NCBI RefSeq assembly: GCF_036365525.1
Contig: NC_090404.1
Coordinates: forward strand, 4,216,001 to 4,280,000
Length of the DNA: 64,000 bases
Direction of reading: 5' to 3'
DNA from: Heterodontus francisci
Taxonomy: Eukaryota
The notes below the pieces were generated by a model. That model did no database searches, had not been told where the DNA came from, and worked only from the letters and a program-made list of their open reading frames with translations. This document shows, piece after piece, positions 1-36,936 of the stretch. The number at the start of each line of letters is the position of its first letter. The stretch's first letter is position 1. Position numbers and translations under genes: made by a program.

Positions 1-2172
1 TCCCCTTAATGCCATTGACGTCTAGAAATCATGTTAATGATTGCTTTAAATATCCTCATTGACTGAGTTTCCACAAACCGATGGGGTAGAGAATTCCAAA
101 GATTCACAACCCTCTGAGTAATGACATTTCTCCTCATCTCTGCCTGAAGTGGTTTCACCCTTATTTTGAAATTGTGCCCCCTGGTTCTAGATCCCCCAAC
201 AAGGGGAAACATCTTACCTGCATCTACCCTGTCTATCCCCTTAAGTATTTTGTAGGTTACAATGAGATCATCTCTCATTCTTCGAAACTCTAGAGAACAC
301 AGGCCCAAGTTCCCCACTCTCTTTTCATAAGGCAGTCCTGCCATCCAGGGAGCAAGCCTGGTGAGCCTCGTTGCACTCTCTCTTTGGTAATAATATCCTT
401 CCTCAGTAAGGGAACCAAAACGGCACACAATCCTGCAGGTGCTGTTTAACCGAGGTTCTATACAATTGAAGCCAGACTTCACTCGTCCCGTACTCAAAAC
501 CTCTTGCAAAAAAATGATGAGAGATACAGCACTGAAACAGGCCCTTCGGCCCACCGAGTCTGTGCCGACCATCAACCACCCATTGATGCTAATGCTACTC
601 TAATCCCATATTTCTACCACATCCCCACCTGTCCCTATATTTCCCGACCACCTACCTACACTAGGGGCAATTGCTAATGGCCAATTTACCTGTCAACCTG
701 CAAGTCTTTGGCATGTGGGAGGAAACCGGAGCTCCCGGAGGAAACCCACTCAAACACAGGGAGAACATGCAAACTCCGCACAGGCAGTACCCAGAATTGA
801 ACCCGGGACGCTGGAGCGGTGAGGCTGCGGTGCCACCCACTGCATTATTTAATCTCTTACTATTTAAGAAATACTCTGCACATCTATTCCTCCTAGCAAA
901 GTGAATAATCTCACATTTTTCCACATTATGTCCATCTGCCACGTTCTTGCCCACTCACTAGGTCTCTCCAAATCCCCTTGAAGCCGCTTTGCATCTTCCT
1001 CACAACAGACATTCCGGTCTAGTTTTGTGTCATCCATGAACTTTGAAATATTACATTTGGTTCCCATATCTAAATCACTGACAAATATTGTGAACAGCTG
1101 GAGCCTAAATACTGATCCTCGCCGTACCTCACTAGTCACAGCCTGCTAATGCGAGAATTACCCATTTATTACTACTCTCTGCTTTCAGCCTGTTAACAAA
1201 TCCTTAAACTACTCCAGTATATATTACCTCCTATCGCATGTGCTTTCATTTTGCTGACCAACCTCCTGTGGAGGACTTCATCAAAACGTTCTGAAAATCC
1301 AAGTATACTACGTCCATTGACTCTCCTTCATCACTTCTGTTAGTAATATCTTCAAAAAAACTTCTAAAGGTTCGTCAAACATGATTTCCCACTCATAAAA
1401 CCATGTTTACTATGCACAGTCTGATCATTATTATCCAAGTGTCCACTTATTACATCCGTTACAATACATTCGAGCATTTCCCTAGCACTGATGTAAGACT
1501 AACAGGTCCGTATTTCCCTGTTTTCTCTCTCCCTCCCTTCTTAAATTGTGGGGTGACATTTCTCACCTTCCAATTTGCCGGAACCGTTCCAGAATCTATA
1601 GAATTTTGGAATATGATCACCAACACTTCCACTATCTCATAGTTTCCGCTTTTAAAACACTGGGATACGAACATAGGAATTCGGAGCAGGTGTAGGCCAC
1701 TCAGCCCCTCGAACCTGCTACACCATTCAATAAGTTCATGGCTGAACTGATTATTGCATATTACCACCTACCCCCGATCATCTTTCACCCCCTTGCTTAT
1801 CAAGAAGCTATCTACCTCCGCCTTAAACATATTCAAAGACTCTGCTTCCATTGCCTTCTGAGGAAGAGAGTTCCAAAGACTCACGAACCTCTGAGAGTAC
1901 TGGGATGAGAGAGGGATATACAATATCAGGTCCCATGGACTTATCAGCATTTAGCCCTATTAATTTCTCCAATACAACCTTCTTACTAACACCAAATTCC
2001 TTCAATTACTCATTCTCCCTCGTCCCTTGAATCTCTAAAGCTGGGAGATTTATTATACCTTCCTCAGTGAAGACTGACACAAAGTAAGCATTTAGCTTTA
2101 CCATTTCTCTATTCCCCATTTTAAATTCACTTGAATCTGCCTGTAATGGACCCACATTTGCCTTAGCCTAAC
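1..2172 (-). mobile_element. Degenerate CR1-clade LINE ORF2 fragments (RT and 3' end), interrupted by a SINE and a second CR1 3' fragment
   Basis: Minus-strand ORFs read RMRDDLIVTYKILKG...RTRGHNFK, KFMDDTKL (YADD-like) and VPANWKVRNVTPQFKKGGREKTGKYGPVSLTS; many stops and frameshifts. Confidence 0.9.
512..845 (-). mobile_element. tRNA-derived V-SINE (HE1-like)
   Basis: Reverse complement has a tRNA-like head (ggtggcaccgcagcctcacc), the V-SINE core tgcggagtttgcatgttctccctgtg...tttcctcccaca and a CR1-like tail gggccgaagggcctgtttcagtgctg. Confidence 0.8.
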
Positions 2173-2200
2173 GAGTCCGATGCATTCCTGAAGTAGTGCG
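2171..2200 (-). other. Remnant 23-RSS of V-a; nonamer replaced by CR1 sequence
   Basis: Minus strand cgcacta (degenerate heptamer) directly after CAMSP, then 23 nt, then CR1 ORF2-like sequence. Confidence 0.55.
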
Positions 2201-2821
2201 GGGCTCATGGCGCAGAAATGCAAGGCGATGTTGGAGATCAGGGCATTGCCAATCGCTAGCTCAGTAATCTTGGCATCTTTTGTCAACATAGAAACAAACC
2301 AATTAATGATGTCGGTGTTCCTGTGTACATTCCCTCCATTAAGATGAAGCATATACTGTGCCGGCTGCCCAGCGTGCTGACTGCACCAGTACATATAAGT
2401 GTGAGAATCGTTTCTCTTTTCAAGCTACACAGTCGTGTGATGTTACTTTTCTCTTCAATTGTCATTTCAAGGACAGTCTGTTCAATTGTGTCTTGGTGGT
2501 TCAATTATAAGAGAATATCAGAGTAATAGTCATGATTAGAAGCATTATCATCACCACCATCTCAATGAACATAATTATCATCATTTGACCAATAATGAAA
2601 CCTAGGTTGCAGCAGGGAAAATGCATTTTTGCTTGAAAGGAAACATGACAGTAAAGTAATTTAATGATTATTAACAGTGGGAGCCTGTTCCATATGATGC
2701 TTTCTGAGTCTGTAATTCTGCAGTCTGGAAAATCCGCTGTCTGAGCGAACGCATTTCCTAACCCACTGACCTTCTAACTCAGCCAGTGCCAAACAGGGAA
2801 CAGCGACAGCAATCTCTCCAT
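2201..2821 (-). pseudogene. TCR alpha/delta-type V pseudogene (V-a): frameshifted leader 2771-2821, V exon ~2201-2506
   Basis: Leader MERLLSLF/CLALAELEG with gtcagt donor; V exon DTIEQTVLEMTIEEKSNITRLCSLK../YMYWCSQHAGQPAQYML...NALISNIALHFCAMSP (Cys23, Trp41 and Cys104 equivalents, one frameshift); splice acceptor mutated. Confidence 0.8.
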
Positions 2822-3144
2822 AAACACAGGGGAAGCAAGGCGGCTCAGAGCCAGAGCAACTGAAATTTTGCGGGCGGGGCTGCCGCGGGGGCAGTGTTGA
2901 CACATGGAGGATTCATTTGTAAGGAACTGAATTCATTCATAATGTCGCAATCTGAAATTGTATAACTCTGCCTGTCTCTAAGAGTTGTTTTACTTGCGTA
3001 ATTATTGCACATTCGCTACAAGCAGGCTTGCGATATGAAAGACAGAATTATTATATTATTTACAAGTTACCAAAATCTTCATCAGTGAAGTGGGTTAAAA
3101 CTCGGGTGGGAATGTAACGGTGGGAAATGGAATGAAATGGTAAT

Positions 3145-3700
3145 AAAAGCAAAATACTGCAGATGTTGGAAATCTAATAGGACAAGGTCACAGAAAATAA
3201 CTGAGCAGCAGGTCATGGACCAAAGGCAGCGGTATGTTAATGGTGTGGTCACATACAAGCGTTAGTGCAGAGAGGGTGCACATTGACAGAAAACGAACAG
3301 CCCTGACCCCAAGCACAAGCATGAAAAAAACTGTGAGTAGGCACAATAGAAACAAACGAAGCAAATTAAAATAAAATAAAAGAAACAAATAACAAAGAAA
3401 AAAGAAAAAATAACTAAGAATAAAAATTAAAAGGTGGGTCCGTCATGCACTGAAATTTTTGAACTCAGTGTTCAGTCCGGCAGGCTGTAGTGTGCCGAAT
3501 CGGTAACTGAGATGCTGTTCCTCGAGCTTGCGTTGACGTTCACTGGAACACTGCAGCAACCCCAGGACAGAGATGTGGGCATGAGAACAGGGGTTGAATT
3601 GAAATGGACAGCAACCGGAAGCTCGGGGTCATGCTTTCGGACTGAGTGGAGGTGTTCTGCAAAGCGGTCACCCAATCTGCGTTTAGTCTCCTCGACATTG
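3145..3700 (-). mobile_element. Penelope-like element 3' fragment (GIY-YIG end plus terminal repeat)
   Basis: Minus-strand RRLGDRFAEHLHSVRKHDPELPVAVHFN motif; terminal aaaagcaaaatactgcagatgttggaaatc shared with other copies in the window. Confidence 0.8.
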
Positions 3701-3846
3701 GGGACGGAAGTGGCTGTTCAGAGATGTAGAAATGGACGAGAGAAGAAATTCCAGCCGGTCTAATAACAACCCGGCGCTGTTTCTTCCTTTCCAGGTTCTG
3801 TAAGGTCGCAGTCTCTGTTTCTGAAGTTAAGACTGGAATCGCCGAG

Positions 3847-4313
3847 ATTAAACTCTGCCTGACACCACTTATTGTCCTGATCACAGGTCGGTACCATTAT
3901 AAACTCCCTGCAACATTCGCCAATCATCATTAAATTTCCCATCTCCAGCTGCGGGTCACTTTCACTTTATTATACTTCATCTAACATGCTGTGTGTCCGC
4001 TGTTTATTTTCAGAGATGGGTAACAGAGACTCAGGGCTCCAGTAAGAACAAGGAGTTGGATCAGTAAATTTAGCAATAATCTATAGTTGTTCTGCATGGT
4101 TTCACTTGCCAGCTGTAACCTGTTCTGGCATCACCAGTATCCACACCAAGCTCCTTAGTATCTGTTCAGAACCGATAGTCACGAAAATAAGGAAACGGCT
4201 CCCGGTTTTGAACACTTCAGCGGTAATCTCAACCGGATGCAAGGCACTTTTCTCCTGCCTATGAAAGGCTTGAGGATCACAGACAACGACTATTATTACT
4301 GCACCATAAGACC
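3847..4313 (+). pseudogene. TCR alpha/delta-type V pseudogene (V-b): leader-like 3847-3886 (ATT for ATG), V exon 4014-4313
   Basis: tttcag acceptor at 4013; CNLFWHHQYPHQAP*YLF...HFSGNL...LRITDNDYYYCTIRP; in-frame stop and a disrupted 5' part. Confidence 0.8.
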
Positions 4314-4352
4314 CACAGTGAATAAGATTCCTCGAGCAGAACACAGGTCGGC
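4314..4352 (+). other. RSS of V-b (perfect heptamer, nonamer lost)
   Basis: cacagtg at 4314-4320 directly after YYCTIRP; no good nonamer at 23 nt. Confidence 0.6.
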
Positions 4353-5197
4353 ATTAAGGGTGGGCGCCAAGTAAATACAAGGGATTGAATCCCAGAGAGT
4401 TTGCACAGAAAATGAAGGGAATATGCACTTTTTTCGAGCTGTTTTCTCAGTCAGTGCTCTCACCGTTGTGAAATGTAACATTTTTGCAGCATTTGAATCT
4501 AGGGTCAAATTCAGATATTCCCAGCTACCTGTTAACAATGACTTGCAGATCTCTGGGATGAATAACAGGATCGATCTGTCCAAGTAACATATCCGTCAGG
4601 CCACATCTTGCAAAGTTTCTGGAATTGCATTGGTAACAAAAGCGGCTGAATGAAATCATCACTTTACTGGTACAAGTTGAACATAAGTGATACCGCACAC
4701 CGATTTGAAGAGGAGTGGCTACTTATAATGTCCTTGATAGCCTTAGGACTGTAGCAATGATGTTCATGGTCGGGAGGGTATTCATTCATACCAGGGCTTG
4801 AGAGCAAATCGAATTATTTCACCTTAATTAGAGAGAGATCTATTTCTCATATAACATAAAGATATCCAGTTATACAACAATGGAGACAAAGTGAGAAAGA
4901 AGCAGAAAGACTGACAACGAGATAAAGAACAAGCGACTGAGACAGGGAGAAAGACGCACAAACGTATTCAGGGAAGAAAGTATTGGTGAGACACAGCAGT
5001 AATTAGTCCTCAACGAACCTGATTGGTTCACAGTTGACATAATATCTGAGCCACCAGCCAACGTTACCCAGAGAAACACCCGTCCGTTTTCCAATAAGTG
5101 AATTCTGCCTCGATCAAAGGTCATTCTTCAATGTAGGATTGGAAAATTAACAATTAAAGCATTCTGCTATTTTCAGTCGAACGCTAAACCAGACAGC

Positions 5198-5625
5198 ATG
5201 TGCTTCCTACGTTTCTTACTGATGATACTGGTCTTGTTGTCGCATGAACCTATGTTTAAAAGAAAAGTGTGTCCTCCATTGGTTATATTCAGTCTTCTAA
5301 TTTCGACTTCTGTGTATTGTTACAGGAATGAGTGGTGACGATTCAGTGTCCCTGGACCCACTTGAATTAACGGTTCAGGAAAGACGGGCGGTAATTCTGA
5401 ACTTTAGTTACACGACAGCGTAGCCTGACTTAAATCTTTTCTGGTACATGCAGTATCTGAGGGAAGCTCCGAGATTTTACTGAGAACATGCAGCATGGTA
5501 CAGGGGGATAAATCTCCAGATTTTCCAGATTCTGGTGAATTGGACAAAGAAAAGAAAACAGTTCCTTCAAAAGTCGACGGGGCTCTTGTCTCTGACTCTG
5601 CGGTGCGTTACTGTGTCCTCCGCCT
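5198..5625 (+). pseudogene. TCR alpha/delta-type V pseudogene (V-c): leader from 5198, V exon 5326-5625
   Basis: Leader MCFLRFLLMILVLLS; acceptor ttacag at 5325; GMSGDDSVSLDPLELTVQE...ILNFSYTTA*PDLNLFWYMQYLREAPRF/LL...VSDSAVRYCVLR; stop, frameshift and loss of the first Cys. Confidence 0.85.
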
Positions 5626-5664
5626 CACACTGTCAGAGGAGCGCAGTCTGTCAGTACAAACATG
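5626..5664 (+). other. 23-RSS of V-c
   Basis: cacactg + 23 nt + acaaacatg. Confidence 0.8.
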
Positions 5665-6720: not shown

Positions 6721-6989
6721 GTGCTGGCTGTCTCGTTTATCTGCAGAACAACTGCAAACTTGTTATGCTGGCTGTGGGAAATTCTAATGAGCAGTGCACA
6801 GCTCTTCTCGTGGAATTCAATGGCACAGATGCCAGGACAACATGAATTATTTTCCTCATGCACCAGCCTCACAGACTGGCTCTGTTAAAGGGCCAACATT
6901 GAGTTTTAACCCCGTCCAGTTCCCTGTTGTGAGAACAATTTCCCTGTTCACTGCTCTGATGTCATCAATTCTGGATGAAAGGACCGAAG

Positions 6990-7651: not shown

Positions 7652-8064
7652 GTGTATTTGTGTTTACCTGTCCTGATTTCTCAGTTAAGTATTGGGGGTG
7701 ACGGGCTGATTCTCGGAGATAGACGTTGGTTAATTTGATATTGCTCTGTTCTTGCAGGATATTGTCGAGGAGACTCCGTTTCACAGACACCGGCTGTAAT
7801 CACAGTAAGTGAAGGAGACGATGTTCGGTTGCACTGTGATTATACAACTACAAGCAGCAGCAATCCTTACCTATTCTGGTACCGTTAGTATCCCAGTGGA
7901 TACATGGAATATCTGCTGCAAAGAAACAAATACAGTGAGGACCGAGAAAGATTTCCAGAGGACCGTTTTTCAGCGGAGCTCGATGATTCGATCCGAACCA
8001 TCCCACTGAAAGAATCTAAAACAGAACTGACAGACTCTGCGGTGTACTACTGCGCACTGAGACC
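7652..8064 (+). pseudogene. TCR alpha/delta-type V pseudogene (V-d), nearly intact: leader 7652-7688, V exon 7758-8064
   Basis: YCRGDSVSQTPAVITVSEGDDVRLHCDYTTTSSSNPYLFWYR*YPSGYMEYLLQRNKY...DRFSAELDDSIRTIPLKESKTELTDSAVYYCALRP; single TAG at 7886-7888; leader begins with GTG. Confidence 0.92.
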
Positions 8065-8103
8065 CACAGAGACACAGAGCTGGGCTGATCCTGAACAAAA
8101 ACT
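8065..8103 (+). other. 23-RSS of V-d
   Basis: cacagag + 23 nt + acaaaaact. Confidence 0.9.
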
Positions 8104-9170: not shown

Positions 9171-9171
9171 A

Positions 9172-11430: not shown

Positions 11431-11834
11431 ATGTCACTCAGTGATCTTTTATTCTTTATATTGTATCCTGCTTTTGTTGGGATTTACTATTCACACATTC
11501 TCTAAATGTTTCTCTCTCTATCCTGCAGAGAGCGGCCTTGAAGGCATCACTCATCAACGAAAAGAAGATGTGACAGCTCGGGGAAGAGTGATCTCCACCA
11601 TGACGAGCTCCTATACTGAGGTGACGAGAGTTTGCCTGGAATGGTACCGGGATGGTCTCTCCGTGGATCCGGAGAAATTCTCATCCACTGCACCGACGGG
11701 TTCATTGACAATTCGTCTTTTGCAACCCGGCGCTTCACCACATCTTTGGTCAAAAAATACACGGCCGTCAGTGAAACAGTTTCACAGGTGGCAGCTGCCG
11801 ATACCAGGAAATACTTCTGAGTCTTAACACCGCA
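11431..11834 (+). pseudogene. TCR alpha/delta-type V pseudogene (V-e): possible leader 11431-11476, V exon 11529-11834
   Basis: ctgcag acceptor; ESGLEGITHQ...TEVTRVCLEWYRDG...PE/ILIHCTDG...RRFTTSL...AADTRKYF*VLTP (TGA at the second Cys); frameshift. Confidence 0.75.
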
Positions 11835-11873
11835 CACAGCCGTGTAGGTTGGGAAAGAGCCTATACATAAACT
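11835..11873 (+). other. 23-RSS of V-e
   Basis: cacagcc + 23 nt + acataaact. Confidence 0.75.
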
Positions 11874-15415: not shown

Positions 15416-16119
15416 TCATGGGCACCCGTTTTGCTCAGGCTCCTTGATGCTCTACTCCTGCTACCATTTTGGTTTACTTCCTCTGCACTCGCTCCAATGT
15501 CTTGAGATTCTTTTTCAATAGTGGAGACAGCTGTTAAGCCAACAGGCATATAATTTCCTGCTATCTGTCACACCCCTTTTTGCGAGTTTTCAATCCTCTC
15601 GGAGGTTTCCAGAATCTAGGGTATTTTGGGAGATTGCAACCAATACATCCACTATCTCTACAGCGACTTCTTTTAAAGGGAGATGGAGTGGAGCAATGTG
15701 AGGGGATCCCTCGGCTGGTGTTCAGTGAGTTCAGGAAGATGGTATCAGAGGGAATGGAGCATGGAGAGAAGATTCCTGGGGTGATCTTCAGTGAGTTCAA
15801 GGAGATGGTGTAAGAGGGAATAGAGTAGAACAAAGAGGAAGTTCAACTGAGGTGGGGGGGCAGGGGGGTGCGGAGGGCAAATAACGAGGTATAGTAGAAA
15901 TGATGGAGGCAGTGATTCAACATGTGCATAACAGAAAAGTGGACACTGTGTGTGTATCTGACAGAACAGGTGGACAGTGTGGTTTGTGTATATATCAGTA
16001 AATTTGAAGTTAGAGTCTATGTGTCAGATAGACCTCAGAATCCGGGGCTCATTCCTGCCGTTTGTCCTCCCTCTTGTGTCTACCAGACTCTGGGAGTCAT
16101 CCCAGCAATTAAATTGATT

Positions 16120-19100
16120 CAAATTCATTGAAACCCTAATTAACTATTTAATTAATAAATAGAGGAGCAACTAATCCGGAGGGAGGAGATTACTGCATTT
16201 AATATTTATAGTAGAAAGCTAGCGCTAGGGACCATATAGTTAATTGTAACTTTATTTAGTAAGGATTTAATAAGTATTTATTTTAAATTAATGTATTAAT
16301 TAGTGCTAGAAATGTCTGTTAGAGGGGTAAAGTGCTTCACCTGTGAGATGTGGAAGGTCCATGACACTTCCAGCATTGCGGACAACGTCATCTGCAAGAA
16401 GTGTACCCAATTGCAGCTCGTCACAGACCGCATGGATCGGTTGGAGCAGCAATTGGATGCGCTTAGGAGCATGCAGGTGGTGGAAAGCATCATAGACAGG
16501 AGTTTTAGAGATGTGGGTACACCCAAGGTGCAGGCAGATGGATGGGTGACCGCTAGAAGGGGCAGGCAGTTAGTGCAGGAATCCCCTGTGGCTGTCCACC
16601 TCTCTAACAAGTATATCGTTTTGGATACTGTTGGGAGGGATGGCCTATCTGGGGAAAACAACAGCAGCAGCCACAACAGTGGCACCACGGCTGGTTCTGT
16701 TGTTCAACAGGGAGAGACAAAGCGCAGAAGAGCATTAGTTCTTGGGTAGTCAATAGTCAGGGGCACAGATAGGCGCTTCTGAGGACGTGAAAGAGACTCT
16801 CAGATCGTATACTGCCTTCCTGGTGCCAGGTTCAATGATGTCTCTGAATGGGCAGGGGGCATTCTGAAGGGGAAGGTGAACAGCCAGAGTTTGTGATACA
16901 CACTGGTACCAACGACATAGACAGGAAGAGTGACAGGGTTCTGCAGGAGGAATAACTTCGGTAGTAAGTTAAAAAACAGGACCTCTCGGGTTGTAATTTC
17001 GGGATTACTCTCTGTGCCACGTGCCAGTGAGGCTAGAAATAAGAAGATAGTGCAACTGAACACGTGGCTAAACAGCTGGTGTAGGAGGGAGGGTTTCAGA
17101 TATCTGGATCATTAGGATCTCTTCCGGGGCAGGTGGGACCTGTACAAGAAGGACGGGTTGCATCTAAACTGGAGGGGCACAAATGTCCTGGCCGCAACTT
17201 ATGCTCACGTCACTCGGGAGGGTTTAAACTCGTGTGGCAGGGGGGAGGGAACAAGAGCAGTTGGTCAGCAGGTGAAGCAACTGAGGGGGAACTAGTAAAT
17301 AAGGCCAGTAAGACTGAGAGGAAGAGCAGGCAGGGAGATGTTGCTGAGCACTGCGGGACTGGTGGTCTGAAGTGCATTTGTTTCAATGCGAGAAGTATAA
17401 CAGGTAAGGCAGATGAAATTAGAGCTTGGATTAGTACTTGATGTTGTTGCTATTACAGAGATTTGGTTGAGGGAAGGGCAGGATTGCCAACTAAATGTTC
17501 CAGGATTTAGAAGCTTCAGGCGGGATAGAGGGGGGTGAAAAAGGGGTGGGGGAGTTACATTACTGGTTAAGGAGAATATCACAGCTGTACTGTGGGAGGA
17601 TACCTCGGAAATCTCATGCAGCGAGGCATTATGTAGAGCTCAGGAATAGGACGGGTGCAGTCACAATGTTGGGGGTTTACTGCAGGCCTCCCAACAGCCA
17701 GCGGGAGAGAGAGAAGCATATATGTAAATAGATTTTGGAAAGATGTAAAAGCAACATGTTTGTTGTGGTCGGTAATTTAAACTTTCCCTATTTTGACTGG
17801 GACTCAATTAGTGCTAGGGGCTTGGATGGGGCAGAATTTGGAAGGAGCATCCAGGGGGGCTTCTTGAAACAATGTGTAGATTGTCCAACTAGGGAAGGGG
17901 CCGTACTGTACCTGGTATTGGGGAATGAGCCCAGCCAGGTTGTCGAAGTTTCTGCAAGGGAGCATTTCCGGAACGGTAGCCATAATTCCGTAAGTTTTAA
18001 GGTTCTTGTGGATAAGGATAAGAGTAGTCCTCCGGTGAAGGTGCTAAATTGGAGGAAGGCTAATTATAACAATATTAGGCAGGAACTGAAGAATTTAGAT
18101 TGGGGGCGGCTGTTTGAGGGTCAATCAACATCTGGGAGTCTTTCAAACGTCAGTTGATTAGAATCCAGGACCGGCATGTTCCTGTGAGGATGAAAGATAA
18201 GTTTGGCAAGTTTTGGGTACCTTGGATAACGAGGGATATTGTGAGCCTAGTGAAAAAGTAAAAGGAAGCATTCGTAAGGGCGAGAAGGCTGGGAACATAC
18301 GAAGCCCTTGAGGAATATAACGAAAGTAGAAAGCAACTTAAGCAAGGAGTCAGGAGGGTTAAAAGCGGTCATGAAAAGTCTTTGACAAACAGGATTAAGG
18401 AGAATCCCACGGCTTTATATACGTATATAAAGAACAAGAGGGTAGCAAGGGTAAGGGTTGGCCCACTCAAGGACAGAGGAGGAAATCTATGCGTGGAGCC
18501 TGAGGAAGTGTGCGAGGTACTAAATGAGTACTTTGTATCAGTATTCACCCAAGAGAAGGACTTGGTGGATGATGAGGCCGGGGAAGGGAGTGTAGATAGT
18601 CTGGGTCATGTCGATATCAAAAAGGAGGAGGTGTTGGGTGTCTTGAAAAACATTAAGATCGAGATGTCCCCAGGGTGTGATGGGATCTACTACCCAGAAT
18701 ACTGAGGGAGGCAAGGGAGGAAATTGCTGGAGCCTTGACTGAAGTCTTTGTATCCTCATTGGCGACAGGTGAGATCCCAGAGGAGAGGAAAATAGCCAAT
18801 GTTGTTCCTTTTTTTAAGAAGGGTGGTAAGGATAATCCAGGAAATTAGAGGCTGGTGAGCCTTACGTCAGTGGTAGGGAAATTATAAGAGAGGATTCTTC
18901 GGGACAGAATTTATTCCCATTTGGAAACAAATGGACTTATTAGCAAGAGGCAGCTTGGTTTTGTGAAAGAGAGGTCGTGTCTCACTAACTTGATCGTGTT
19001 GTTTGAGGAAGTGACGAAGATGATTGATGAAGGAAGGGCAGTGGAAGTTGTCTACATGGACTTAAGTAAAGCCTTTGACAAGGTCCTTCATGGCAGATTG

Positions 19101-20165
19101 GTACAAAAGGTGAAGTTACACGGGATCAGAGGTGAGCTGGCAAGATGGATGCAGAACTGGCTCGGTCATAGAAGGCAGAGGGTAGCAGTGGAAGGGTGCT
19201 TTTCTGAATGGAGGACTGTGACTAATGGTGTTTTGCAGGGATCAGCGCTGGGAGCTTTGCTGTTTGCAGTATATGTAAATGATTTGGAGGGAAATGTAGC
19301 AGGTCTGATGAGTAAGTTTGCGGATGACACAAAGGTTGGTGGAGTTGAGAATAGTGATGAGGATTGTCAGAGGATACAGCAGGATATAGATCGGTTGGAG
19401 ACATAGGCAGAGAAATGGCAGTTGGAGTTTAATCCGGACAAATGTGAGGTAATGCATTTTGGAAGGTCTAATACAAGTGGGAAGTATACAGTAATGGCAG
19501 AACCCTTAGGAGTATTGACAGGCAGAGAGATCTGGGCGTACAGGTCCAAAGATCACTGAAAGTGGCAACGCAGGTGGATAAGGTAGTCAAGAAGGCATAT
19601 GGCATGCTTGCCTTCATCGGTTGGGGCATAGAGTATAAAAATTGGCAAGTCATGCTGCAGCTGTACAGAACCTTAGTTAGGCCACACTTGGAATATTGCA
19701 TACAATTCTGGTCGCCATACCACCAGAAGCATATGGAGGCTTTGGAGAGGGTACAGAAGAGGTTTACCAGGATGTGGCCTGGTCAGGAGGGTATTAGCTG
19801 CCAGGAGAGGTTGGATAAACTCGTATTATTTTCACTGGAACGACAAGGTGGAGGGGTGACATGATAGAGGTTTACAAAGTTATGAGTTGCATGGACAGAG
19901 TGCTTCGTCGGAAGGTTTTTCCCAGGGTGGAAGAGTCAGTTACTAGACGACATAGGTTTAAGGTGCGAGGGGCAAAGTTTAAAGGGGATGTGCGAGGCAA
20001 ACTCTTTACACAGAGGGTGGTGAGTGCCTGGAACCTGCTGCTGGGGGAGGTGGTGGAAGCAGGTACGATAGTGACGTTGAAGAGGCATCTTGACAAATGC
20101 ACGAATAGGATGGGAATAGAGGGATACGGTCCCCGGATGTGCAGAAGGTTTTAGTTTAGACAAGC
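16120..20165 (+). mobile_element. Near full-length but inactivated CR1 LINE (ORF1 Zn-finger/SGNH esterase; ORF2 APE endonuclease plus RT)
   Basis: ORF1 CFTCEMW...CKKC, VIHTGTNDI, DGLHLN; ORF2 CICFNARSI, SKAFDKV, SKFADDTK, VRPHLEYC; multiple stops and frameshifts. Confidence 0.92.
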
Positions 20166-20419
20166 ATTGTTCATTTTTCTTTGAATTGTGCCTCCTTCGT
20201 TGTCTAATAGGCTTCAGGATCAGGAAGTCATTCCCAGGGTTTCTGGGATGTATTCGATAGCCCCTTGAATGTGGGCTCCCTGTTGTGGAAAATGGACCCC
20301 AGGCTCTTGGGATAATTCCCAGCATTTATTCTTAATGGTCTATCGTTCCAGATATTCATTAGTCTTGAGGAATCATTCCCAGGGTTTATTGTCTCTCGTG
20401 TCTGTGTTATATTTCTAAC

Positions 20420-21344: not shown

Positions 21345-21353
21345 TCACTTAAC
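21345..21353 (-). CDS. IGHM: IgM TM2 exon (cytoplasmic tail VK*)
   Basis: tttacag|GTT AAG TGA completes the conserved KVK tail; AATAAA downstream at ~21119 and ~20921. Confidence 0.85.
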   Translation of the reverse strand, partial: VK

Positions 21354-21485
21354 CTGTAAAAGAGGGATAAAAGAATGAAGCAGAGATTTCGTGGTCTTGG
21401 ACATTCATCTCAGAACTATGAAATTTTAGGGATTTGTTAAACAGCTTCATTTAATTTGAAATGTGAGTGGATTGAATATTCTCAC

Positions 21486-21613
21486 CTTCACCAGAGTGAC
21501 GGCAGCGCTGTAGAAAATACTCAGGAAGAACAGGATGATGAATGTGGAAGCGGTTGTCCAGATGTTACCGCTCTCTTCCTCATTGTCTTCAATCCAGATG
21601 TGGCCTGAGTAAT
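21486..21613 (-). CDS. IGHM: IgM TM1 exon
   Basis: (D)[42 protein letters not shown], a CART-type transmembrane segment; ag/gt boundaries and phase match the CH4 internal donor at 24480. Confidence 0.93.
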
Positions 21614-24418: not shown

Positions 24419-24813
24419 TCATTGACATGAATTAACGGTGTCCAACAGTGCAAGGGAAATGTTCACAAAACTCGGTTTACCGCTGGATTTATTAACTGTT
24501 CTGTTGATGATCTTCAAGGGGATCGCTTCATGTCCCACCACACAGGAGTAAGAAGTGCCGCTGGCCCACTCCTCTGCTGCAATGGATAACAGGCTGTAGA
24601 TGAAGAAGGAGCTCTTGTCGTTCTCCGCCATCACCTCGGTGTTCTTGTAGTTGCCGGGATTCACTGACTTGTCATTGACGGTCCACTTGACGAAGATCTC
24701 TCGGGGGGAGAAACCTCTCACTAAGCAGGTGAGGGAGAGGAACCTCTCAGCGGAGATTTCTTCTGCTGGGGGCAGGAGAACAGACACAGACGGTTCCCGC
24801 AGATCTTTCCATG
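24419..24813 (-). CDS. IGHM: IgM CH4 exon plus secretory tailpiece
   Basis: [15 protein letters not shown]...[17 protein letters not shown]...[43 protein letters not shown] (penultimate Cys, N-I-S glycan site); AATAAA at 24385-24390 and 24372-24377. Confidence 0.97.
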
Positions 24814-25282
24814 CTGAAAAATTAAAATAAATGTCAATAAACTAGACAATTTCAGAGACAATGACACCGGTGGTTAAATGTGAGAGAAATTGTGAAGGTT
24901 TTCCTTTTCCTCTCTGGGGCCTGTGCTGTTTTCCAGCCGGTGCAGAGGCGCTACAATCCTGCTCGCCGAGAACATAAAGGATTAGATTGGAAAATTACAT
25001 AGAACTTGCAGCACAGGAGCAGCTATTAGGAGGAGCTAGCCTATGCTGGTGTTTATGCTGCACACGGACCTCCTCCCACCTTACTTCAGCTCTTTCTATT
25101 CATTTCTCCATTATCTACGTATCTAGCATCACCTGAAATGCATCACCTCTGGTCCCAGGGAGGTTCAATAGTGAATTACAATTAAATTATCAGCGTAATC
25201 CATTCAACCACTTAATTGGGCCTTGCACAAACACCGGCAAGAAGCACAACCTCTGAGTTATTGCTTCAATCACATTGCTCAC

Positions 25283-25588
25283 CTTCCTTGTGGATGGAAT
25301 CTCTGAGAGGAGTCGGCAGATCCTGATGGCTCACCACACAGGAGAACACAGCCTCACTCAGCCAGGCTTGTGTCGAGATGTCTACAGTGCTGATCACGCT
25401 ATCGGGTTCCTCTCCGGGTTGGACGGCAATCTCTGATTTCAAAGGCTTCTGTTCTTGTGTCCAGGACACGTTGACACCATAAGGAGCATTAGACACGACG
25501 CAGGTTAAGGTGACCGTCGCCTTCAGTAAGACCTGTTCTATTGATGGTGGCAGTAGTTTAATTACTGGATGATTGCACTCGGAAGAAT
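25283..25588 (-). CDS. IGHM: IgM CH3 exon
   Basis: [31 protein letters not shown]...[21 protein letters not shown]; canonical splice sites, phase 1. Confidence 0.96.
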
Positions 25589-26089
25589 CTGTAGAACAGA
25601 AATGAGAGTCAAAGAAATCTCCATCTTCAGGATCAGGACGCGAGTATTTAACTATCACTTTCTTCAGGAGGGGAAAAACACCTTTCACTTCAACACTGTC
25701 GTTCATGGGAAGGGCAACGATTTGTAAAATCTGGGACATCCAAGCGGATCACATCTCTGCTGAATATAATGGCTCTGTCACCCCAGGACATGAGCTACAC
25801 ATGTAATTCATACTGGCTCAAAACGAATGAAATTACGAATTTTAGGACCAACTGGAAACAAAGTTAATGTTCTGGTGCCTTGTCAGTATATTTGGGGAGA
25901 TGAAAATGTTCAGCAACCAGACAGAGGAGGGGCGAAAGGTCGGTAAAATGCAGTCCCAAGGTTTTTGTGTGGTGAGGAATAATTCGCAATACTGGACGAG
26001 ATAGTTTTCTAATATCTGCCACGAGTGAGTATTTCTCATGTGTCGGCCTGGAGTTAGAAGGCGATCTGACCACAGGACTGTAATAAGAA

Positions 26090-26720
26090 CATAAGAATAA
26101 GAGTGGGCTATTCATCCCCTCGAGCACGTTCCGCCATTCAATTGCACGATGGCTGAATTGTATCTTAATTCTGTTTACCCATATATAACCCTTAATACCC
26201 TTACCTGTCAGAAATCTATCACTCACAACATTAAAATTTTCAATGGATGTCAAGCTTCTAAAGTGAATTGGGGGTGAGAATTCCAGATTACCGCTATCTA
26301 CTGTGTGAATACTCCCTTCCTGATATCATTCCTGAATGACCATGGTCTAATCTGAAGGTTATGCCCCCTTGTTCTGAAGTTCCTCACCAGAGGAAATATT
26401 TTTCTCCATTGACTCCATCAATTCCAGTAAACATCTTAACCACCTCAATTAGATCACCCTTTAATCTTCTATACTCAAAGCAATACCAGTTTGGCCTGTG
26501 AAACCTGTCCTCATAACTTAACCCGATCAGCCCCGTTATCATTATGGTCAATTCTTGTTGCACCACTCCCAAGGCCAATACATTCTTCCTGTGCTCTGCA
26601 GTCCAGAATTGAACACAGTTTTCTAAAGAGGGTAGATGCTCTTTCTGGCACCTGATTCCGAGGCCGTTACCAAGAAAGGGTTCCAGATGCCGATTGCTGC
26701 TCCGTGTATGATTAGCCCAT
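26090..26720 (-). mobile_element. CR1 LINE 3' fragment in the CH2-CH3 intron
   Basis: LENCVQFW...RRLKGDLIEVVKM. Confidence 0.8.
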
Positions 26721-26986
26721 TCAGGATAAAGCTGATATACAGGCCACCTCACTCACTATATAACATCACAGTAGAGCTAAACATTCTTTCATGATGTGAT
26801 GACATGTTGAACCGTGAGCAATCCTAATTTCTAATTTCTAAATCCTAAACTCACAGCCAAATAACACATAAAAACTGCACGATGGCGATTTAGAAATTGT
26901 TCTTTGTACAAACTCCAATAAATTCCTGACTTTCAGTAACATGGAGTACAGAAAGATGTGGAGTTTCCTGGGACTGTGCCTCTTAC

Positions 26987-27304
26987 CTGGAGATCCGGTG
27001 ATGTTTCGGCTTTGGGTGACCGCTTGATGGGAGACCTGGCAGGTATAGACCGTGTTGGTGAACCATTCCCGAGCGGGGACTGTCAGCCGACTGGTCGCTG
27101 AGAAGTTCCCGTTCGTTTCACAGGCGGGAGAGGTGACGAAGCCCGATTCCATGGGATGTCCATCCTTCAACCAACTCACGGTTATTGCTTCTGGATGGAA
27201 ATCGATGATTGAACACACGACAGTCGCAAATCTGCTGCTTCTGATTTCTTCACTGGAAGTCTGGGTGAGGATAACAGTTGGATGGACGATGTCACCTTTA
27301 CAAT
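26987..27304 (-). CDS. IGHM: IgM CH2 exon
   Basis: [14 protein letters not shown]...[21 protein letters not shown]...[20 protein letters not shown]; canonical splice sites. Confidence 0.96.
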
Positions 27305-27516
27305 CTTCAAGAAAAAACATGTTAGACATTTCTAGAAGAAATTAATAACTAATACAAACTGTTCTTATATTTTAACAGGTTATTTGCATCAAGCAGGCAC
27401 TAACTGATGTTTCCAGCGGTCTGAACTGTGCACAACACTCGAAATGTGGAATAGCCAAAGTTCTACACAAGATCCGTCGAGCTTTTCTGTTTTTCCACAG
27501 TTTCCACAACACTAAC

Positions 27517-27813
27517 CTGGAATTTCCTTGATCCAGAGCGACTCTCCGCGTCGAACCTCGCAGTAGATTTTGCTGCTTCCCACCTCTGACTCGGTGATGG
27601 TTAACTGGCTGCTCAGGGTGTAGGTTCCCTTCTTGTTCAGCACTGACGGGTAAGTCTTCAAACCAGTGGTGATCGGTTCTTCACCTTTCTTCCAGGAAAC
27701 GCTGGTGATTTGGGGGATGTAGTCCATCGCCAAACAGCCGTAGGCCATGGAGCCGTCGGTGTTGGGTTGTTCACAGGAGCACAGGCCGTAAAGGGTTGGG
27801 GGAGACGGTGTCG
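27517..27813 (-). CDS. IGHM: IgM CH1 exon
   Basis: [42 protein letters not shown]...[17 protein letters not shown]; closely resembles shark mu CH1. Confidence 0.96.
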
Positions 27814-31249: not shown

Positions 31250-31700
31250 AGCTTATGAGTTAGATGCAGATTGAGATTCCTTGAACACTGTGGGGAAAAC
31301 ATTCTCAGATCAGGTACAGGACAGTTAAGCTGCAAAGTAAAGATCCCTCTACACGGCCCTATCATGAGTTGTAATCTCAGACATTGCCAGTGTTATATTC
31401 CGTAGAAAGCTGCCTCTACACTGCACTGTCACTCTGGGTCAGGTACAGCATCAGTTTAATATAAAATAAAAATTCCCTCTACGCTGTCCCATCAAATATA
31501 TCCAGGACAGGTTCAATCCGATTTAGATACTGAGTAATTCCTCCCTCTACGCTGTCCCCAACAAGTAGTCCCAGAACAGTTACAATATAGATTAAACATA
31601 CAGTAAAACTTCCTCTACATTGCCGAATCAATCACTCCCAAGGGAGGTACATTACTGATTACAAACGGACCAAATCTCCTTCTACAGTCCGTCTGTTGTG
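31250..31700 (+). repeat. Degenerate ~65-bp tandem repeat in the J-C intron
   Basis: About 6-7 units of ccctctacactgtcccatcaa..tccca..caggtacag...ttagat. Confidence 0.7.
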
Positions 31701-34700
31701 TCTCTGAACTGTTATTTCTGACTGCCACAGACTGGAATTATGATCTCATTGCTGAGGCGCCTCATCAAACTTAAAGTCAAACTTTTAGGTTTCTCGGGGG
31801 TACAAGTTTCTTAATTAAATGGATCAAGTTGCACTCCTTGAAATGAAACGAACCAGTCTGTTTGCAACCTGCAGGGAGGATTCCTCGTCCTGACACAGTG
31901 AGCAGGCGCACAGAAACAGAACAGACACAAACGGTGCAACAATCGGGCTCTCAGCAGTTAGATCTGTTCAATTGTCAATTTCAATGAAGCTGTTTTATTC
32001 TAATTCATCAATTGTCAAATTGTGACCACTCCAGGTCTGTATACTCTTTGAAATTAAACTGATATTCATTTCAAAAACTCCCTTCGACCTCCAACTGTTT
32101 CTCCCTGTCTGTTTACAATCTGAAAAGCATGTAAGAAAGTTTCGCTTAAAATGAGTACATCAGAAGAATACACATTCAGGAAAATTAGATGTCCATAACC
32201 TGAACTCAGTGACAGAGTAAGAATTTAGCAAATCAGGAGATATTTATCTTGCAAACTGATTACCCACTGGTTTGATACAATTGCAGAATTCAATTTTACA
32301 AAAAGAAATAGTTGAACCACTGCTCAAAGTTAATTCATTAAAATCTGCGGTGACACTTGACTGAGCTGAGAACAGCTGACTAAGAAATGTATTGTTCTCT
32401 AAGTTATTGCCAGACATAATGAAATAATCTCTCCGATTCTTGAGATTTTGCACTCATTGGAATCCTGGCAAGTATACTATTGAATTGTGTGAGGCCATTT
32501 ATGTTTAATGAATTAGCACTATTATATTCTCATATAATATTCATGTTAGCTGATTTTATACTGTATTTATCATTTATAAATAAATGCAAATAAATAAATT
32601 AGTTAATATTACTTCAAGACCAGTTTCTGCCTGGCACCTTGTGAAATAATGGAGTTTTAATTAAGTCATTATGACACTTTATCAATATTAAATAATCAAC
32701 GTCATATTAATAGATGAAAACCTTCAGACAAATATATTACTTCATGCTGAAATCGAATCACAGTGCAATAATATAAAATGAACAATAACTTCTAGTCCCG
32801 CCATGCTTTCTCTCCACAAACTTGTAAACTGCGCAGGTATCTGAATGCGTTGATATATTATAAGCTCCTTCCATTCTCAACGAGTACTTCACACAATGGA
32901 TTTAGCCTGGCCCGGGTCACATGTCACTAACTGGGCTGCAACATAGCCTGTTTGTGAAAGCAGCTCTCCCGTGTTTAAATATCGTTATAAATCTTAACTA
33001 TATGTGATAAAATATCAAAAACATCCGGGCAATTTGCGATCAGTAACTGTGCTGCCACTATTTAATCACACGATGTTTTTAGATTTTACTCCCGTAATTC
33101 ACAAATTAATTGCTAAATATATTGTGATTTTTATTGAACGAAGTTCCAAAATGATCACTGCAAAACTGGACGTAAACAATTCTTTCAGATCATCTGTGAC
33201 ATTGAAACCTAATGAGCAAATGTAGCCGAGATTTGGCGGATCAATTTAATATTTATTAAGAATTCAGCATAACTCTCAGGTATAATCTGTTCTTTGTCTA
33301 TCATTCCATCCTGCGTGCAGCACAACTATGGGAGACAGGATGTTGTTACTGAATTCAAAACTAACATTAAACTTTTGTAATTAATTGAATCTGCTTGAAT
33401 TTCCAGGTGTTATTTGTTTGTCTTTAGCATTACGCAGTCTGCAAGTTTCTTCAATTTAAATAAAATCATATGCACAATTCTTTGACTGCCATTGACCTCT
33501 TGTCCCAGGAAAATGGTTAATATTAGATTAGTGATAATTATCTCACTATCCAACAACAAATGACATTGAAGAAAGAACATGGAAGAACATGAACTCAAAG
33601 AATGCAATAACCGGACAGATATATTACACTGACAAACTGCAATTTACAACGCCTATTTAAGTTGTAAGTAAATACAAGCTGACATTCACCTGTTTTAATC
33701 AGGAATATCACAATTAATTTAAAAGCGCTCATTAACCTGAAAACAGCACTGGAATAAGTACACTCTTATTGAAATAATTTCAAGCATAATTAAAAATAGT
33801 CTCCAGCCATAAAGCTTTCCGGTCACGACAATTGTGCGCTTGGCACACCAGAACTGTAAAAGACGATTCTTGAATAATGAATCCATCATAACATGAAAGC
33901 GTATTTGGTTTATATGAGGACATATTGCCGCATTTTAATTGTTTGAATTGTATTAATTTTACTCTCCAATCTGCAAACCTGCTACTTATTCAGTTTGTAA
34001 TTGCAGTAACATTTCACGGATTGAAGGAGCGTTACAAACCATGGCTTAACAGTTCAATCTGCAATTATCATTCAAATTTTTTTAAATGCCTTGAAATATC
34101 TTTTTTTTTATTTCTGAAATCTGCCTGTTATCCGGCTTTCGAATCGTCTTTGAAGCAGTTTCAAACAAACAGAATGTATCCATTTGATCGGAAAACCTGC
34201 AGCCGCTCGGTGTCACCCGGGTTCAATAAAGCAGAAACGCCAAATAGTTTTACAAATTTTACTTTGTAACACAGAGACACACTCTCCTCAGCAGATAAGC
34301 TCCAACTCACATCACTGAGGGGCTGAATCCCGCCTCAGTACGTTTCAAGGCGAAGCAGCTTAACTCCACAATCACTTTCAGCAGAATCAAATGTAACATC
34401 CCAAAAATAACATCTCAATACAGAATCCACCGAGCCTGCCTGTCTCTGAATTACCAAATATATAAAATAATGGCAGCAGATTTGTGAGTACAGAGAGCAT
34501 GTTTAATAAATTAATATTGATTCTGTAGCATATTTCATTGATATTGCCTGATATCACTGCATTATTAAAAGTGAGGTTATATTAATGTAAATCTGGCCAA
34601 AGCTGCAAATTTGTTATTGATGTAATTCTTAATTACATCAAAATTTATTGTATTACATATGAGCATTCGTAAGCAGTAGATTGATAGATAGCAATTTAAT

Positions 34701-35155
34701 TACCACTGCTCAAAATAGATCAAAATATCAGAAGGCTATTTTTGACCACTGAAGCTTTCTGCATAATTTTATTTCAAACATATTTAAAGACTTATTGTTT
34801 CTATTAGATCAGAAAACCTGCAGCAACTAGATGTCACCCAGATTAAACATTGCAGAAACGTCAAACGGTTTAACAACAGTTTGGTATTTAAAGTAGCCCA
34901 AACACTCAGTCCCATCAACAAATAAACACCAAATCACATCAATCTGGAGCTGAATCCTTCAACAGTACCGTGTGTAAAGAAACCATTAAGTTCTTTAATC
35001 CCTTTGCAGCAGAATCACATAAAACATTGCAACAAATCTCAATATAGAATCCACCAAATCCACTTTTCAGTGAACGACTGTATCATTACAATAAACAGAA
35101 ATATAAAATTAAAAACACAAATAAAACAGTTAATGAATAAATGTATGTTTCTTAC

Positions 35156-35203
35156 CTGCAGTCACCGTCACCATGGTCCCTTGTCCCCAGTACTCAAGAT
35201 AGT
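35156..35203 (-). CDS. IGHJ: JH segment
   Basis: YLEYWGQGTMVTVTA with WGxG motif and gtaag donor at 35155. Confidence 0.95.
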
Positions 35204-35205
35204 CC

Positions 35206-35220
35206 GGTATGGCAGTGGGT
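35206..35220 (+). other. D1 segment (ggtatggcagtgggt), inverted relative to V/J/C and fused to JH
   Basis: G-rich D-like 15-mer on the + strand followed by a 22-spacer RSS; abuts JH through cc (35204-35205), palindromic to its gg end. Confidence 0.8.
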
Positions 35221-35258
35221 CACGGTGCTGTACAGAGCGAGTTCTTCATCCAAAAACC
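35221..35258 (+). other. 22-bp-spacer RSS (D1 3' type)
   Basis: cacggtg + 22 nt + ccaaaaacc. Confidence 0.9.
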
Positions 35259-35569
35259 TCAGACAGGGAGTTTGCTCAAACCAGCGATCACTAACACGGC
35301 AGATGGTCCTTAAACAATGAGGGTTAAATATAAAATTGGGGAAATACAATATTGATTTGTAAAATTGTATAAAAGTCTCCTGCTTTATTCATGTTGACTG
35401 TCACGCTAAATCAGCACAGATGATTCAGAAATATTGCGATCCCTTTATAAATATAATGACTGGTATAAACTGAATTATCTCACTGATGTACTCTTAGGGT
35501 GATTGGAATCATGTTTTTGAGAGCGCTGTGAAATGTAATCTCTGTATTTTACAGTTAACAGTCCGCCGC

Positions 35570-35638
35570 AGTATTTGACACGGTATGTCTCACTGTGATA
35601 TATTGGGTGGCACAGCAGTTACTGTCAATACAAAAACT
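35570..35638 (+). other. D2 segment (35598-35610, atatattgggtgg) flanked by 12/12 RSSs
   Basis: agtatttga-12-cactgtg | atatattgggtgg | cacagca-12-acaaaaact. Confidence 0.93.
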
Positions 35639-35964
35639 CCCTCAGCACTAATTGATGAGTCTGGGTCAGTGCTCGCTTTAACAATCCAACTATATATACA
35701 GTGAAGTTCTATTTGTGTCCAGCACTGTCCTCCTAGCACGGTTTATTATGGATAAACGGATTAATTATTCATTCATCAGTTGGTGATTTCAATAATTGCT
35801 GATATGTTACTGTGTGAAATATAAATCATCAGGGAAATTTATAAAGAGTGAAAAGAATTATTAATGCAGTTATAATTTTACAAAGAACCATCAAGATTTT
35901 ATTTTGCCTCTGGAGTGTGGATATTTAAAATAATAATGGATTTCTCACTATTCTGTGCAGAGCC

Positions 35965-36031
35965 AGTTATTGTGTGACCCAGCCAAGGGAATGTAACACT
36001 GTGCACAGTGACACTAACCTGCACAAATACT
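35965..36031. other. Precise RSS signal joint: 23-RSS fused head-to-head to 12-RSS
   Basis: agttattgt-23-CACTGTG|CACAGTG-12-acaaatact with zero intervening bases (GTGCAC at 36001-36006). Confidence 0.95.
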
Positions 36032-36421
36032 GCACTCACTCTCTGTTCAGTACTGCCTCCCAATATTCACTTCAAATAAAAATTCACTTCTGATCTAATT
36101 CAGAATATATCCAAAAGTTTACACCATGCAGTAGGAATTGAACCCAGCTCCAAGTAACACCCTCCAGATATCAGTCACATTAAAACTAGCATCTTATCCA
36201 GATTTGCAATTGCTGATACTATTAACATTAAAAATCAGCACAGCCAAAATTAGTCGTCAGTACTTCGGTTAGTGTCTTAGATTTGTACCATTGAATTTTC
36301 ACTGTGCTACTTGTGTGAGAGACGGTCTATGGCCTGGTTCTGAACACTGCCGTTAATATTGTATTTAATAAAATTACTGACCATCAGTTTATGATGGAAG
36401 TTATCGAATTCTCTCTCCATA

Positions 36422-36460
36422 TGTTCTTGTACATGTCCAGCCCTGGTTCCTCTCATTGTG
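36422..36460 (-). other. VH 23-RSS
   Basis: Minus strand cacaatg + 23 nt + acaagaaca. Confidence 0.93.
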
Positions 36461-36765
36461 ATCTCTTGCACAGTAATAGATGGCGGTGTCTTCAGTCTTC
36501 AAGCTCTTCATGTCCAAAGCAAAAATGTTTTTGGAAGTGTCTTTGGACGCAGTAAATCGATCTTTAATCCCTGGGGCGTAGTAGTTGCTGGATGAACTAT
36601 AGTAGTGAACCAGCCACTCCAGCCCCTGTCCGGGAACCTGCCGGACCAAGCTCATCCAGTAGCTGCCAAGAGTGAACCCGCTGGTTTCACAGGTCAGTCT
36701 CAGGGAGCCTCCGGGTTTCCCGGTCTCTGCCTCTGGCTGAGTCAACACGATATCCGAATGGACAC
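36461..36765 (-). CDS. IGHV: IgM VH exon (open frame; conserved FR2 Trp replaced by Leu)
   Basis: [51 protein letters not shown]...RFTASKD...[10 protein letters not shown]. Confidence 0.96.
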
Positions 36766-36890
36766 CTGTAAAAAATATCAAAAACCCCGAGAATTAATCC
36801 TGGAGAAATGATTCCTGACTCTGTAATATTCCAGAGAGAGACTATCACTGATCCAATTAGTGAGAGACTCGGACAGTAAAAACTACTCAC

Positions 36891-36936
36891 GGTATAAGAA
36901 AACCAGCAACAGACTGAGAGAAATCGCCGACCTCAT
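36891..36936 (-). CDS. IGHV: IgM VH leader exon
   Basis: MRSAISLSLLLVFLY + c|gtgagt; 46 nt (phase 1); 125-bp intron to V. Confidence 0.93.

Follow-up and report, generated by a model that had tools for sequence, protein, structure and literature searches.

Linkage of B- and T-cell receptor genes is already known from elasmobranchs. In the antigen receptor complex (AgRC; Flajnik et al. 2025, PMC12227049), IgM genes and T-cell receptor (TCR) V segments of other elasmobranchs are linked and interleaved; the accessible part of that paper tabulates such interleaving for four other species and reports IgHV-TCR delta rearrangements as common in sharks. The IgM gene of cartilaginous fish is a minicluster of the form V-D1-D2-J-C-mu, whose elements, according to the available text of PMC5192425, tend in sharks to one shared orientation, making rearrangement deletional. 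Some shark Ig genes are joined in the germline and carry P nucleotides (Lewis and Wu 2000, PMC2193153; Lee et al. 2000, PMC2193156; reviewed in PMC5192425 and PMC8355894). The accessible portions of the two original reports describe partly joined IgH clusters of the horn shark and one hybrid-joint inversion between D1 and D2.

Here we analysed a stretch of 64,000 nucleotides from the horn shark Heterodontus francisci (the window), which occupies positions 4,216,001-4,280,000 of contig NC_090404.1 (C34) in an assembly of 6.0 Gb. It contains an IgM minicluster and, beside it, five TCR alpha/delta-type V segments, V1 to V5. Very probably, the window is one of 12 tandem units of about 76 kb in the shark TCR alpha/delta V region, each consisting of an IgM minicluster and a broken block of TCR Vs, the latter likely passengers of IgM amplification. 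The locus is an example of the elasmobranch AgRC and known in kind; the tandem cassette, and an inversion between D1 and J in the minicluster of the window, are additions. The words 'horn shark', 'Heterodontus' and 'tandem' do not occur in the accessible main text of PMC12227049, where a repeated module of TCR V and IgM, a 12-unit array and a second, inverted TRDJ-TRDC cassette are likewise not described. We found no horn-shark description of this locus in a literature search that left out most subscription papers, including the 1988 horn-shark work.

A DNA search with V4 returned 22 matches, all on C34, and 12 of them, at 95-100%, lie between 3.987 and 4.819 Mb. Each of the 12 copies is followed by a minus-strand C-mu4, with V5 and VH present, which places a TCR V block tail to tail with an IgM cluster in every unit. 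The period of the array is 71-85 kb (mean 75.8 kb), the window being unit 4, and V5 is separated from C-mu4 by 12.2-17.5 kb throughout. In the TCR block, units 2-12 diverge by 0-3.2% and unit 1 by 8.7-8.9%; the alignment of unit 1 runs unbroken over window positions 12450-35204 at 95.7%. Unit 4 differs from unit 7 by 0.1-0.5% up to 33 kb, and beyond 37 kb its nearest relatives are units 8 and 10. Since units are thus mosaics of each other, we infer that the array expanded by unequal crossing-over. The array also contains higher-order near-identical duplications of 150 kb and about 225 kb (units 8-10 against 10-12, units 3-4 against 6-7), which either arose very recently or reflect false duplication.

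An older collinear copy of the same module (V3-V4-V5-TM-C-mu-J, where TM denotes transmembrane exons) is located at C34:13.854-13.882 Mb, with 72-83% identity. In this copy (13,881,700-13,882,900) J and C-mu were matched and no match to VH or D was seen; an open TCR V of the V4 family lies about 0.9 kb from this J on the opposite strand. The TCR V block recurs in inverted orientation at 9.23 and 10.40 Mb, and no IgM exon match was found within 30 kb beside the 9.23-Mb copy. The initial annotation, made from the letters of the window, had proposed that either an IgM cluster is embedded in or borders a TCR alpha/delta V region, or a TCR V block was co-duplicated with the cluster and then decayed. 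Co-duplication is evident from the 12 tandem units together with the older copy. The Vs are indeed broken, as the decay part of the proposal had it, but four of the five were broken before the tandem amplification and not after it.

This order of events is read from the distribution of lesions. Altogether 58 of the 59 TCR V copies of the array are broken. The V1 frameshift is common to all 11 copies of this segment (no V1 was matched in unit 1), the first two lesions of V2 and the frameshift of V3 are each shared by 12 of 12, and V5 carries a frameshift and a stop in all nine aligned copies and the stop in the other three. V4 is different: it has stops in 11 of 12 copies, these fall into two independent classes (codon 39 in six, codon 6 in five), and the copy of unit 1 is open. 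V4 thus appears to have been lost later than the other TCR Vs, and twice. On the IgM side, C-mu1-4 and TM1 are open in 12 of 12 units, as is VH, which encodes 10 distinct proteins and retains the Trp of framework region 2 (FR2) in 11. Pooled pairwise ratios of nonsynonymous to synonymous polymorphism (pN/pS) were 0.15 for C-mu (10 units), 0.32 for the VH framework, 0.87 for complementarity-determining regions (CDR) 1 and 2 of VH and 0.67 for TCR V4. It is the lesions shared among TCR Vs, combined with open VH and C-mu frames in all 12 units, that make the TCR Vs likely passengers. In the first step, an IgM cluster would have been placed tail to tail beside a TCR V block. Two or more ancient duplications of this module would have followed, and unequal crossing-over would then have expanded one of the copies. 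Selection would have acted on IgM, conserving C-mu and diversifying the VH CDRs, and not on the TCR Vs.

Next, we turn to the chromosomal setting. Searched with the TM stretch of flounder TCR alpha, the assembly gave five matches, three of them on C34 at 3.184 (minus strand), 3.302 (minus) and 3.462 Mb (plus). The first belongs to TRAC, a C-alpha-like exon accompanied by 10 TRAJ (counted within 20 kb), and the second to TRDC1, with 19 TRDJ and a D with 12/23 recombination signal sequences (RSS) above it; J segments were read in individual sequence stretches and not by a TRAJ pattern search. The TCR constant regions, together with their J arrays and a 12/23 D, span C34:3.18-3.46 Mb. The window lies 0.9-1.0 Mb 5' of TRDC and TRAC, its TCR V segments being in cis to both TRAJ-TRAC and TRDD-TRDJ-TRDC. 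Another D-J-C cassette of TCR delta type, with 12 J, a diverged C exon and TM, occupies 3,443,000-3,462,000, inverted and head to head with the first one at 3.30-3.34 Mb. Between the two cassettes there are VH-like V segments facing each of them; those adjoining TRD/TRDD at 3.36-3.43 Mb form a set separate from the array VHs. A small contig (C1869:27,414) carries an identical copy of the TRAC region, probably a haplotype duplicate.

Other members of the complex are present on the same contig. An exon at 2.0 Mb is 88-91% identical to IgW and one at 40.08 Mb is 98% identical to horn-shark IgNAR, so that IgM, IgW and IgNAR all reside on the TCR alpha/delta chromosome, as in the AgRC. For a C exon at 0.819 Mb, UrIg2 (9DMX) was second of 4666 PDB matches, this being one exon only. 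PSMB5 was not located: a search with PF00227 gave 28 exon matches, none on C34, and such an exon-wise search is incomplete. The resulting gene order (UrIg2-like at 0.82 Mb, IgW at 1.5-2.0, TRAC at 3.18, TRDC at 3.30, VH-like Vs, the field of IgM and TCR V, IgNAR at 28-44 Mb) mirrors the stingray sheet accompanying PMC12227049, as far as that sheet is accessible. TCR-type V segments also occur at 27.3-33.3 Mb, among IgNAR clusters and far from the main field; both of the ones that were read have a stop at the 3' end.

The field itself extends over 10 Mb. A C-mu4 search detected 55 distinct sites with about 80% identity or more, all of them within C34:3.61-13.87 Mb; of 439 candidates 150 were scored, and these included no site elsewhere. 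This number is far above the IgM counts in the accessible tables of PMC12227049. When an open relative of V4 served as query, 148 of 150 scored TCR V matches were on C34, and at least 168 TCR V sites are interleaved with the C-mu4 sites in the same interval, so that, again as in the AgRC, TCR alpha/delta V exons lie between IgH clusters. IgM clusters face both ways (28 minus, 27 plus). Outside the array, TCR V was detected within 30 kb on the 3' side of 18 of 43 IgM clusters and within 50 kb on either side of 26; for the remaining 17, none was detected within 50 kb. Two further tandem IgM arrays were noticed. One, at 12.03-12.33 Mb, has a period of about 70 kb and a TCR V on the 3' side of each C-mu4, at 18-20 kb; in the other, at 6.94-7.38 Mb and with a period of about 105 kb, the clusters form oppositely oriented pairs and TCR V was not detected. 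At 8,685,000-8,724,000, open TCR Vs of the V1 family, about 16 in number, follow each other at a spacing of 2.56 kb. The initial annotation had suggested looking for TCR D, J and C genes and functional Vs along the flanking scaffold and for the same V block downstream of other IgM clusters. TRAC, TRDC, TRAJ, TRDD, TRDJ and open TCR Vs are all there on C34, the block accompanies every array unit and TCR V a good part of the other clusters, and embedding of the IgM cluster in a TCR alpha/delta V region, with TRAC and TRDC on the same contig and IgM and TCR V interleaved around the window, is supported.

Two facts would favour an assembly misjoin between a TCR V region and the IgM cluster: roughly 70% of the gap is interspersed repeat, and the region is segmentally duplicated. 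We consider such a misjoin hardly credible. The junction recurs in 12 units, is continuous in unit 1 despite its divergence of 4%, and is found again in the 72-83% paralogue 9.6 Mb away; this recurrence makes a misjoin at 12-21 kb very unlikely. In addition, the 135 loci examined contain no N, and the accessible tables of PMC12227049 give the same interleaving, as mentioned above, for four other species.

A functional explanation would be that the array was amplified partly since its VHs supply TCR delta chains, its place inside the TCR locus being itself selected. All 12 array VHs possess a 23-RSS and are on the strand of TRDD, TRDJ and TRDC1, 0.7-1.5 Mb upstream, so that, judged by RSS type and orientation, deletional joining to a TCR delta D would be open to them; IgHV-TCR delta joining is, as the accessible text of PMC12227049 has it, common in sharks. 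The same paper names TAILV along with IgHV-TCR delta rearrangement, and VHs with 23-RSS in cis to TRDD and VH-like segments beside TRD resemble what is accessible there, whereas the VH of the window is part of a complete IgM cluster, and the five Vs found in addition to it are of TCR type and not Ig-like. However, it is the constant exons, useless for TCR delta, that are the most conserved part of the array (C-mu pN/pS as given above), IgM clusters of the whole field face both ways in nearly equal numbers, and a separate VH-like set directly adjoins TRDD. Selection for TCR delta supply therefore seems improbable to us. Even less probable is that the TCR V block has been kept for a function of its own, for example as gene-conversion donors or as RSS or promoter elements opening the region. 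Its order and orientation do recur at 9.23, 10.40 and 13.85 Mb, the 23-RSS is kept in V3-V5, and 18 of the 43 clusters outside the array have a TCR V nearby on the 3' side. Against such a role stand old shared lesions and additional private ones, RSS decay in V1 and V2, the 17 clusters with no detected TCR V in their surroundings and the 9.23-Mb block with no adjoining IgM exon match.

Passenger TCR Vs in an IgM-driven amplification thus remain our preferred reading, and several observations weigh against parts of it. TRAC and TRDC, and with them alpha/delta, are labels given by TM sequence, J and D layout and gene order, with no named shark protein match; a profile search with Pfam PF09291 did not find TRAC and gave a single weak match on contig C26, and no full-length shark TCR alpha or delta chain was among the results of homologue searches. 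Some units are nearly identical in the TCR block (9 and 11, 0.0%; 10 and 12, 0.1%; 4 and 7, 0.1%; 3 and 6, 0.2%), and with differences this small (no more than 0.2%), 12 units is a less certain count, which false duplication could have inflated. The pN/pS values, pooled over pairs of recombining copies with few sites, are descriptive and involve no formal test. Taken at face value, the V4 ratio (below 1) and the open copy of unit 1 indicate that amplification probably started with V4 still functional. The VH of the window unit itself lacks the FR2 Trp. Finally, joined IgM V-J sequences of the window VH family are abundant in two runs that we guess to be RNA (X1 and X2), but they were matched at 90% likeness, that is at family level, and are not assignable to array units. 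Both runs behave like IgM amplicon libraries and are therefore unable to show VH-TCR delta joins.

The second addition to the AgRC concerns the D-J region of the window. Signal joint and coding joint together form the two products of one V(D)J inversion between a 12- and a 23-RSS. As read from the DNA, the joints bounding the D1-J interval of the window are just such a pair, left by a single RAG-type inversion. The heptamers of the D1 12-RSS and the J 23-RSS are fused perfectly, and at the other end the P nucleotides form a palindrome of the D1 end, with D1 and J both untrimmed. The D1 of the window and that of unit 5, which is unrearranged, have the same sequence. All 11 of the other units, sisters of 92-97% identity, carry the D1-J interval in the opposite orientation; among 40 D-J regions scored, only the copy in the window is collinear with its arrangement, and the signal-joint sequence has one exact match in the assembly.

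Is the inversion inherited? In X3, a DNA run from the same sample, a 63-base contig spans the signal joint with no mismatch at depth 9, compared with about 10-13 per unit for the shared flanks; it extends 33 and 30 bases to either side, one short of the 31 bases required for bridging. X3 is the only one of three same-sample DNA runs that lists a spanning contig: X5 and X6 do not list the joint, and the depth of X6 is accounted for without one, though run contigs drop low-depth links and an unlisted joint does not mean absence. From a second individual, 0 of 11 reads span the joint, too few to tell. At window position 36000, another X3 contig with the J-RSS flank of this unit runs into un-inverted J through a changed heptamer, which suggests a related copy outside the assembled array. 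A somatic origin of the window unit in a B cell was also considered: private sites number 4 in its VH and 0-6 in those of the other units, which gives no signal of hypermutation. Since a DNA run of the same sample holds the joint at about single-copy depth, germline origin is likely. On balance, though slightly less firmly, we favour a recent heritable germline RAG inversion, in which one of 12 near-identical copies had its D1 flipped and joined to J with the signal joint retained, so that both reaction products now stand beside 11 uncut sisters.

The window shares with the germline-joined Ig genes of PMC2193153 and PMC2193156, as accessible, a RAG-type junction with P nucleotides in non-rearranged DNA. 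It differs from them in that a standard 12/23 inversion has left both joints, signal and coding, on the chromosome, with 11 unrearranged sisters at 92-97%. The terms 'signal joint' and 'inversion' are absent from the accessible text of Lee et al. (PMC2193156), and the accessible text of Lewis and Wu (PMC2193153) contains no such case; nor did the same literature search, which left out most subscription papers, turn up any account of a germline signal joint retained in a shark. Forms similar to those published are present elsewhere on C34. An IgM cluster at 12,957,345-12,958,179 has an inverted D1-D2 interval with swapped RSS, like the horn-shark hybrid-joint inversion in the accessible part of PMC2193153, and eight clusters are partly pre-joined in VD-D-J, V-DD-J, VDD-J and V-D-DJ layouts. 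Given VD-, VDD- and D2J-joined clusters and one D1-D2 inversion on C34, germline RAG products are part of this locus.

Coordinates of the features of the window are collected in the table below. None of the five TCR Vs has an open frame, each containing a stop and/or a frameshift, and they are unable to encode a receptor chain. In a tree of 58 V domains (58 rows, 99 columns, X at breaks; no UrIg V or NAR V included), each of V1-V5 falls within a family of C34 TCR-type Vs, V1-V4 in starred sets and V5 in a 100/100 pair. The TCR side, with flounder and catshark TCR alpha V, is split from VH and IgL at 93/75 (not starred), and the family placements are accordingly firmer than this deep node. The best single-domain PDB matches of V4 are TCR alpha chains. 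The TCR-type identity given to the five segments by the initial annotation therefore stands, none of them grouping with VH or IgL in the phylogeny it had called for. It had also ascribed to them 23-RSS or remnants, and rightly so: heptamer-23-nonamer signals are recognisable in V3, V4 and V5, and heptamer remnants in V1 and V2. Its motif WY.QYP is found loosely in V2-V4, but V1 reads YWCSQH and V5 WYRDG. A hidden Markov model scan found no more V in window 37-64 kb nor in the spacer stretches of unit 1. An open relative of V5 at C34:3.5146 Mb (locus L095, 4652-4939) has two extra cysteines, near CDR1 and CDR2.

Like the minicluster described in the accessible text of PMC5192425, the IgM gene of the window comprises a leader, one VH with 23-RSS, two D, one J, four C-mu exons, a secretory tail and TM1/TM2. 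The full L-V-D-D-J-Cmu-TM cluster first annotated here is complete in its parts and its frames are open; unlike the described minicluster, it carries an inverted D1-to-J stretch with D1 already joined to J, and in its VH Leu replaces the conserved FR2 Trp (window 36648). This change is private to the unit. The Leu base is not seen in X3 and X6 contigs covering the site, where depth dips, and the change may be real or an assembly error. The distance between the V block and TM2, originally put at about 9.5 kb, is 9.46 kb from the V5 RSS. Retroelements are, as had been supposed, the main separator: 6.6 kb of the gap matches at least two other places (61 other loci and the rest of the window were compared), including a reverse-transcriptase-domain LINE (long interspersed nuclear element), which we take to be of CR1 type.

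Table. Features of the window (positions 1-64,000)
Feature	Position	Parts	Strand	Remarks
V1, TCR alpha/delta V pseudogene	2200..2492		-	frameshift near 2413; heptamer remnant, nonamer lost
V2, TCR alpha/delta V pseudogene	4015..4314		+	stops, disrupted 5' part; heptamer CACAGTG, no nonamer at 23
V3, TCR alpha/delta V pseudogene	5340..5626		+	stop, frameshift; 23-RSS
V4, TCR alpha/delta V pseudogene	7772..8103 (with RSS)	exon 7772-8065	+	one stop, codon 39; good 23-RSS at 8065-8103
V5, TCR alpha/delta V pseudogene	11546..11873 (with RSS)	exon 11546-11832	+	frameshift, stop at second Cys; 23-RSS
Decayed LINE with reverse-transcriptase (RT) domain, main filler between V5 and IgM	16107..20168	RT about 18825-19490	+	Pfam RVT_1, E 3e-30; multi-copy
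IgM TM1 and TM2	21345..21613	TM1 21613-21485; TM2 21353-21345	-	from sequence
IgM C-mu exons	24419..27813	C-mu1 27813-27515; C-mu2 27304-26988; C-mu3 25588-25283; C-mu4 + secretory tail 24812-24419	-	open frames
Coding joint JH-D1	35156..35220	JH 35203-35156; inverted D1 35220-35206	-	two P nucleotides, no trimming
RAG-type inversion, 798 bp	35206..36003			holds D1, its 22-RSS, D2 with both 12-RSS, J 23-RSS
Perfect signal joint	35997..36010			heptamers of D1 5' 12-RSS and J 23-RSS fused head to head at 36003/36004
IgM leader + VH exon + 23-RSS	36419..36936	L 36936-36891; VH 36765-36458	-	FR2 Trp replaced by Leu

If inherited, the D1-J inversion is an unusually complete record of germline RAG activity, one that can be typed by PCR in the population. 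Rearrangement of the unit under the 12/23 rule could then still proceed, in the order V - inverted D2 - inverted D1-J, and germline RAG activity would have created a new D order and new reading frames, perhaps still polymorphic in living sharks. For the region as a whole, the array points to a mode of growth in which IgM clusters multiply as cassettes of about 76 kb that drag TCR V debris along; in this way, TCR-type Vs between IgH clusters are explained without a function for them. With dozens of IgM VHs in cis to the TCR delta D, what is called 'trans-rearrangement' would here be ordinary long-range joining.

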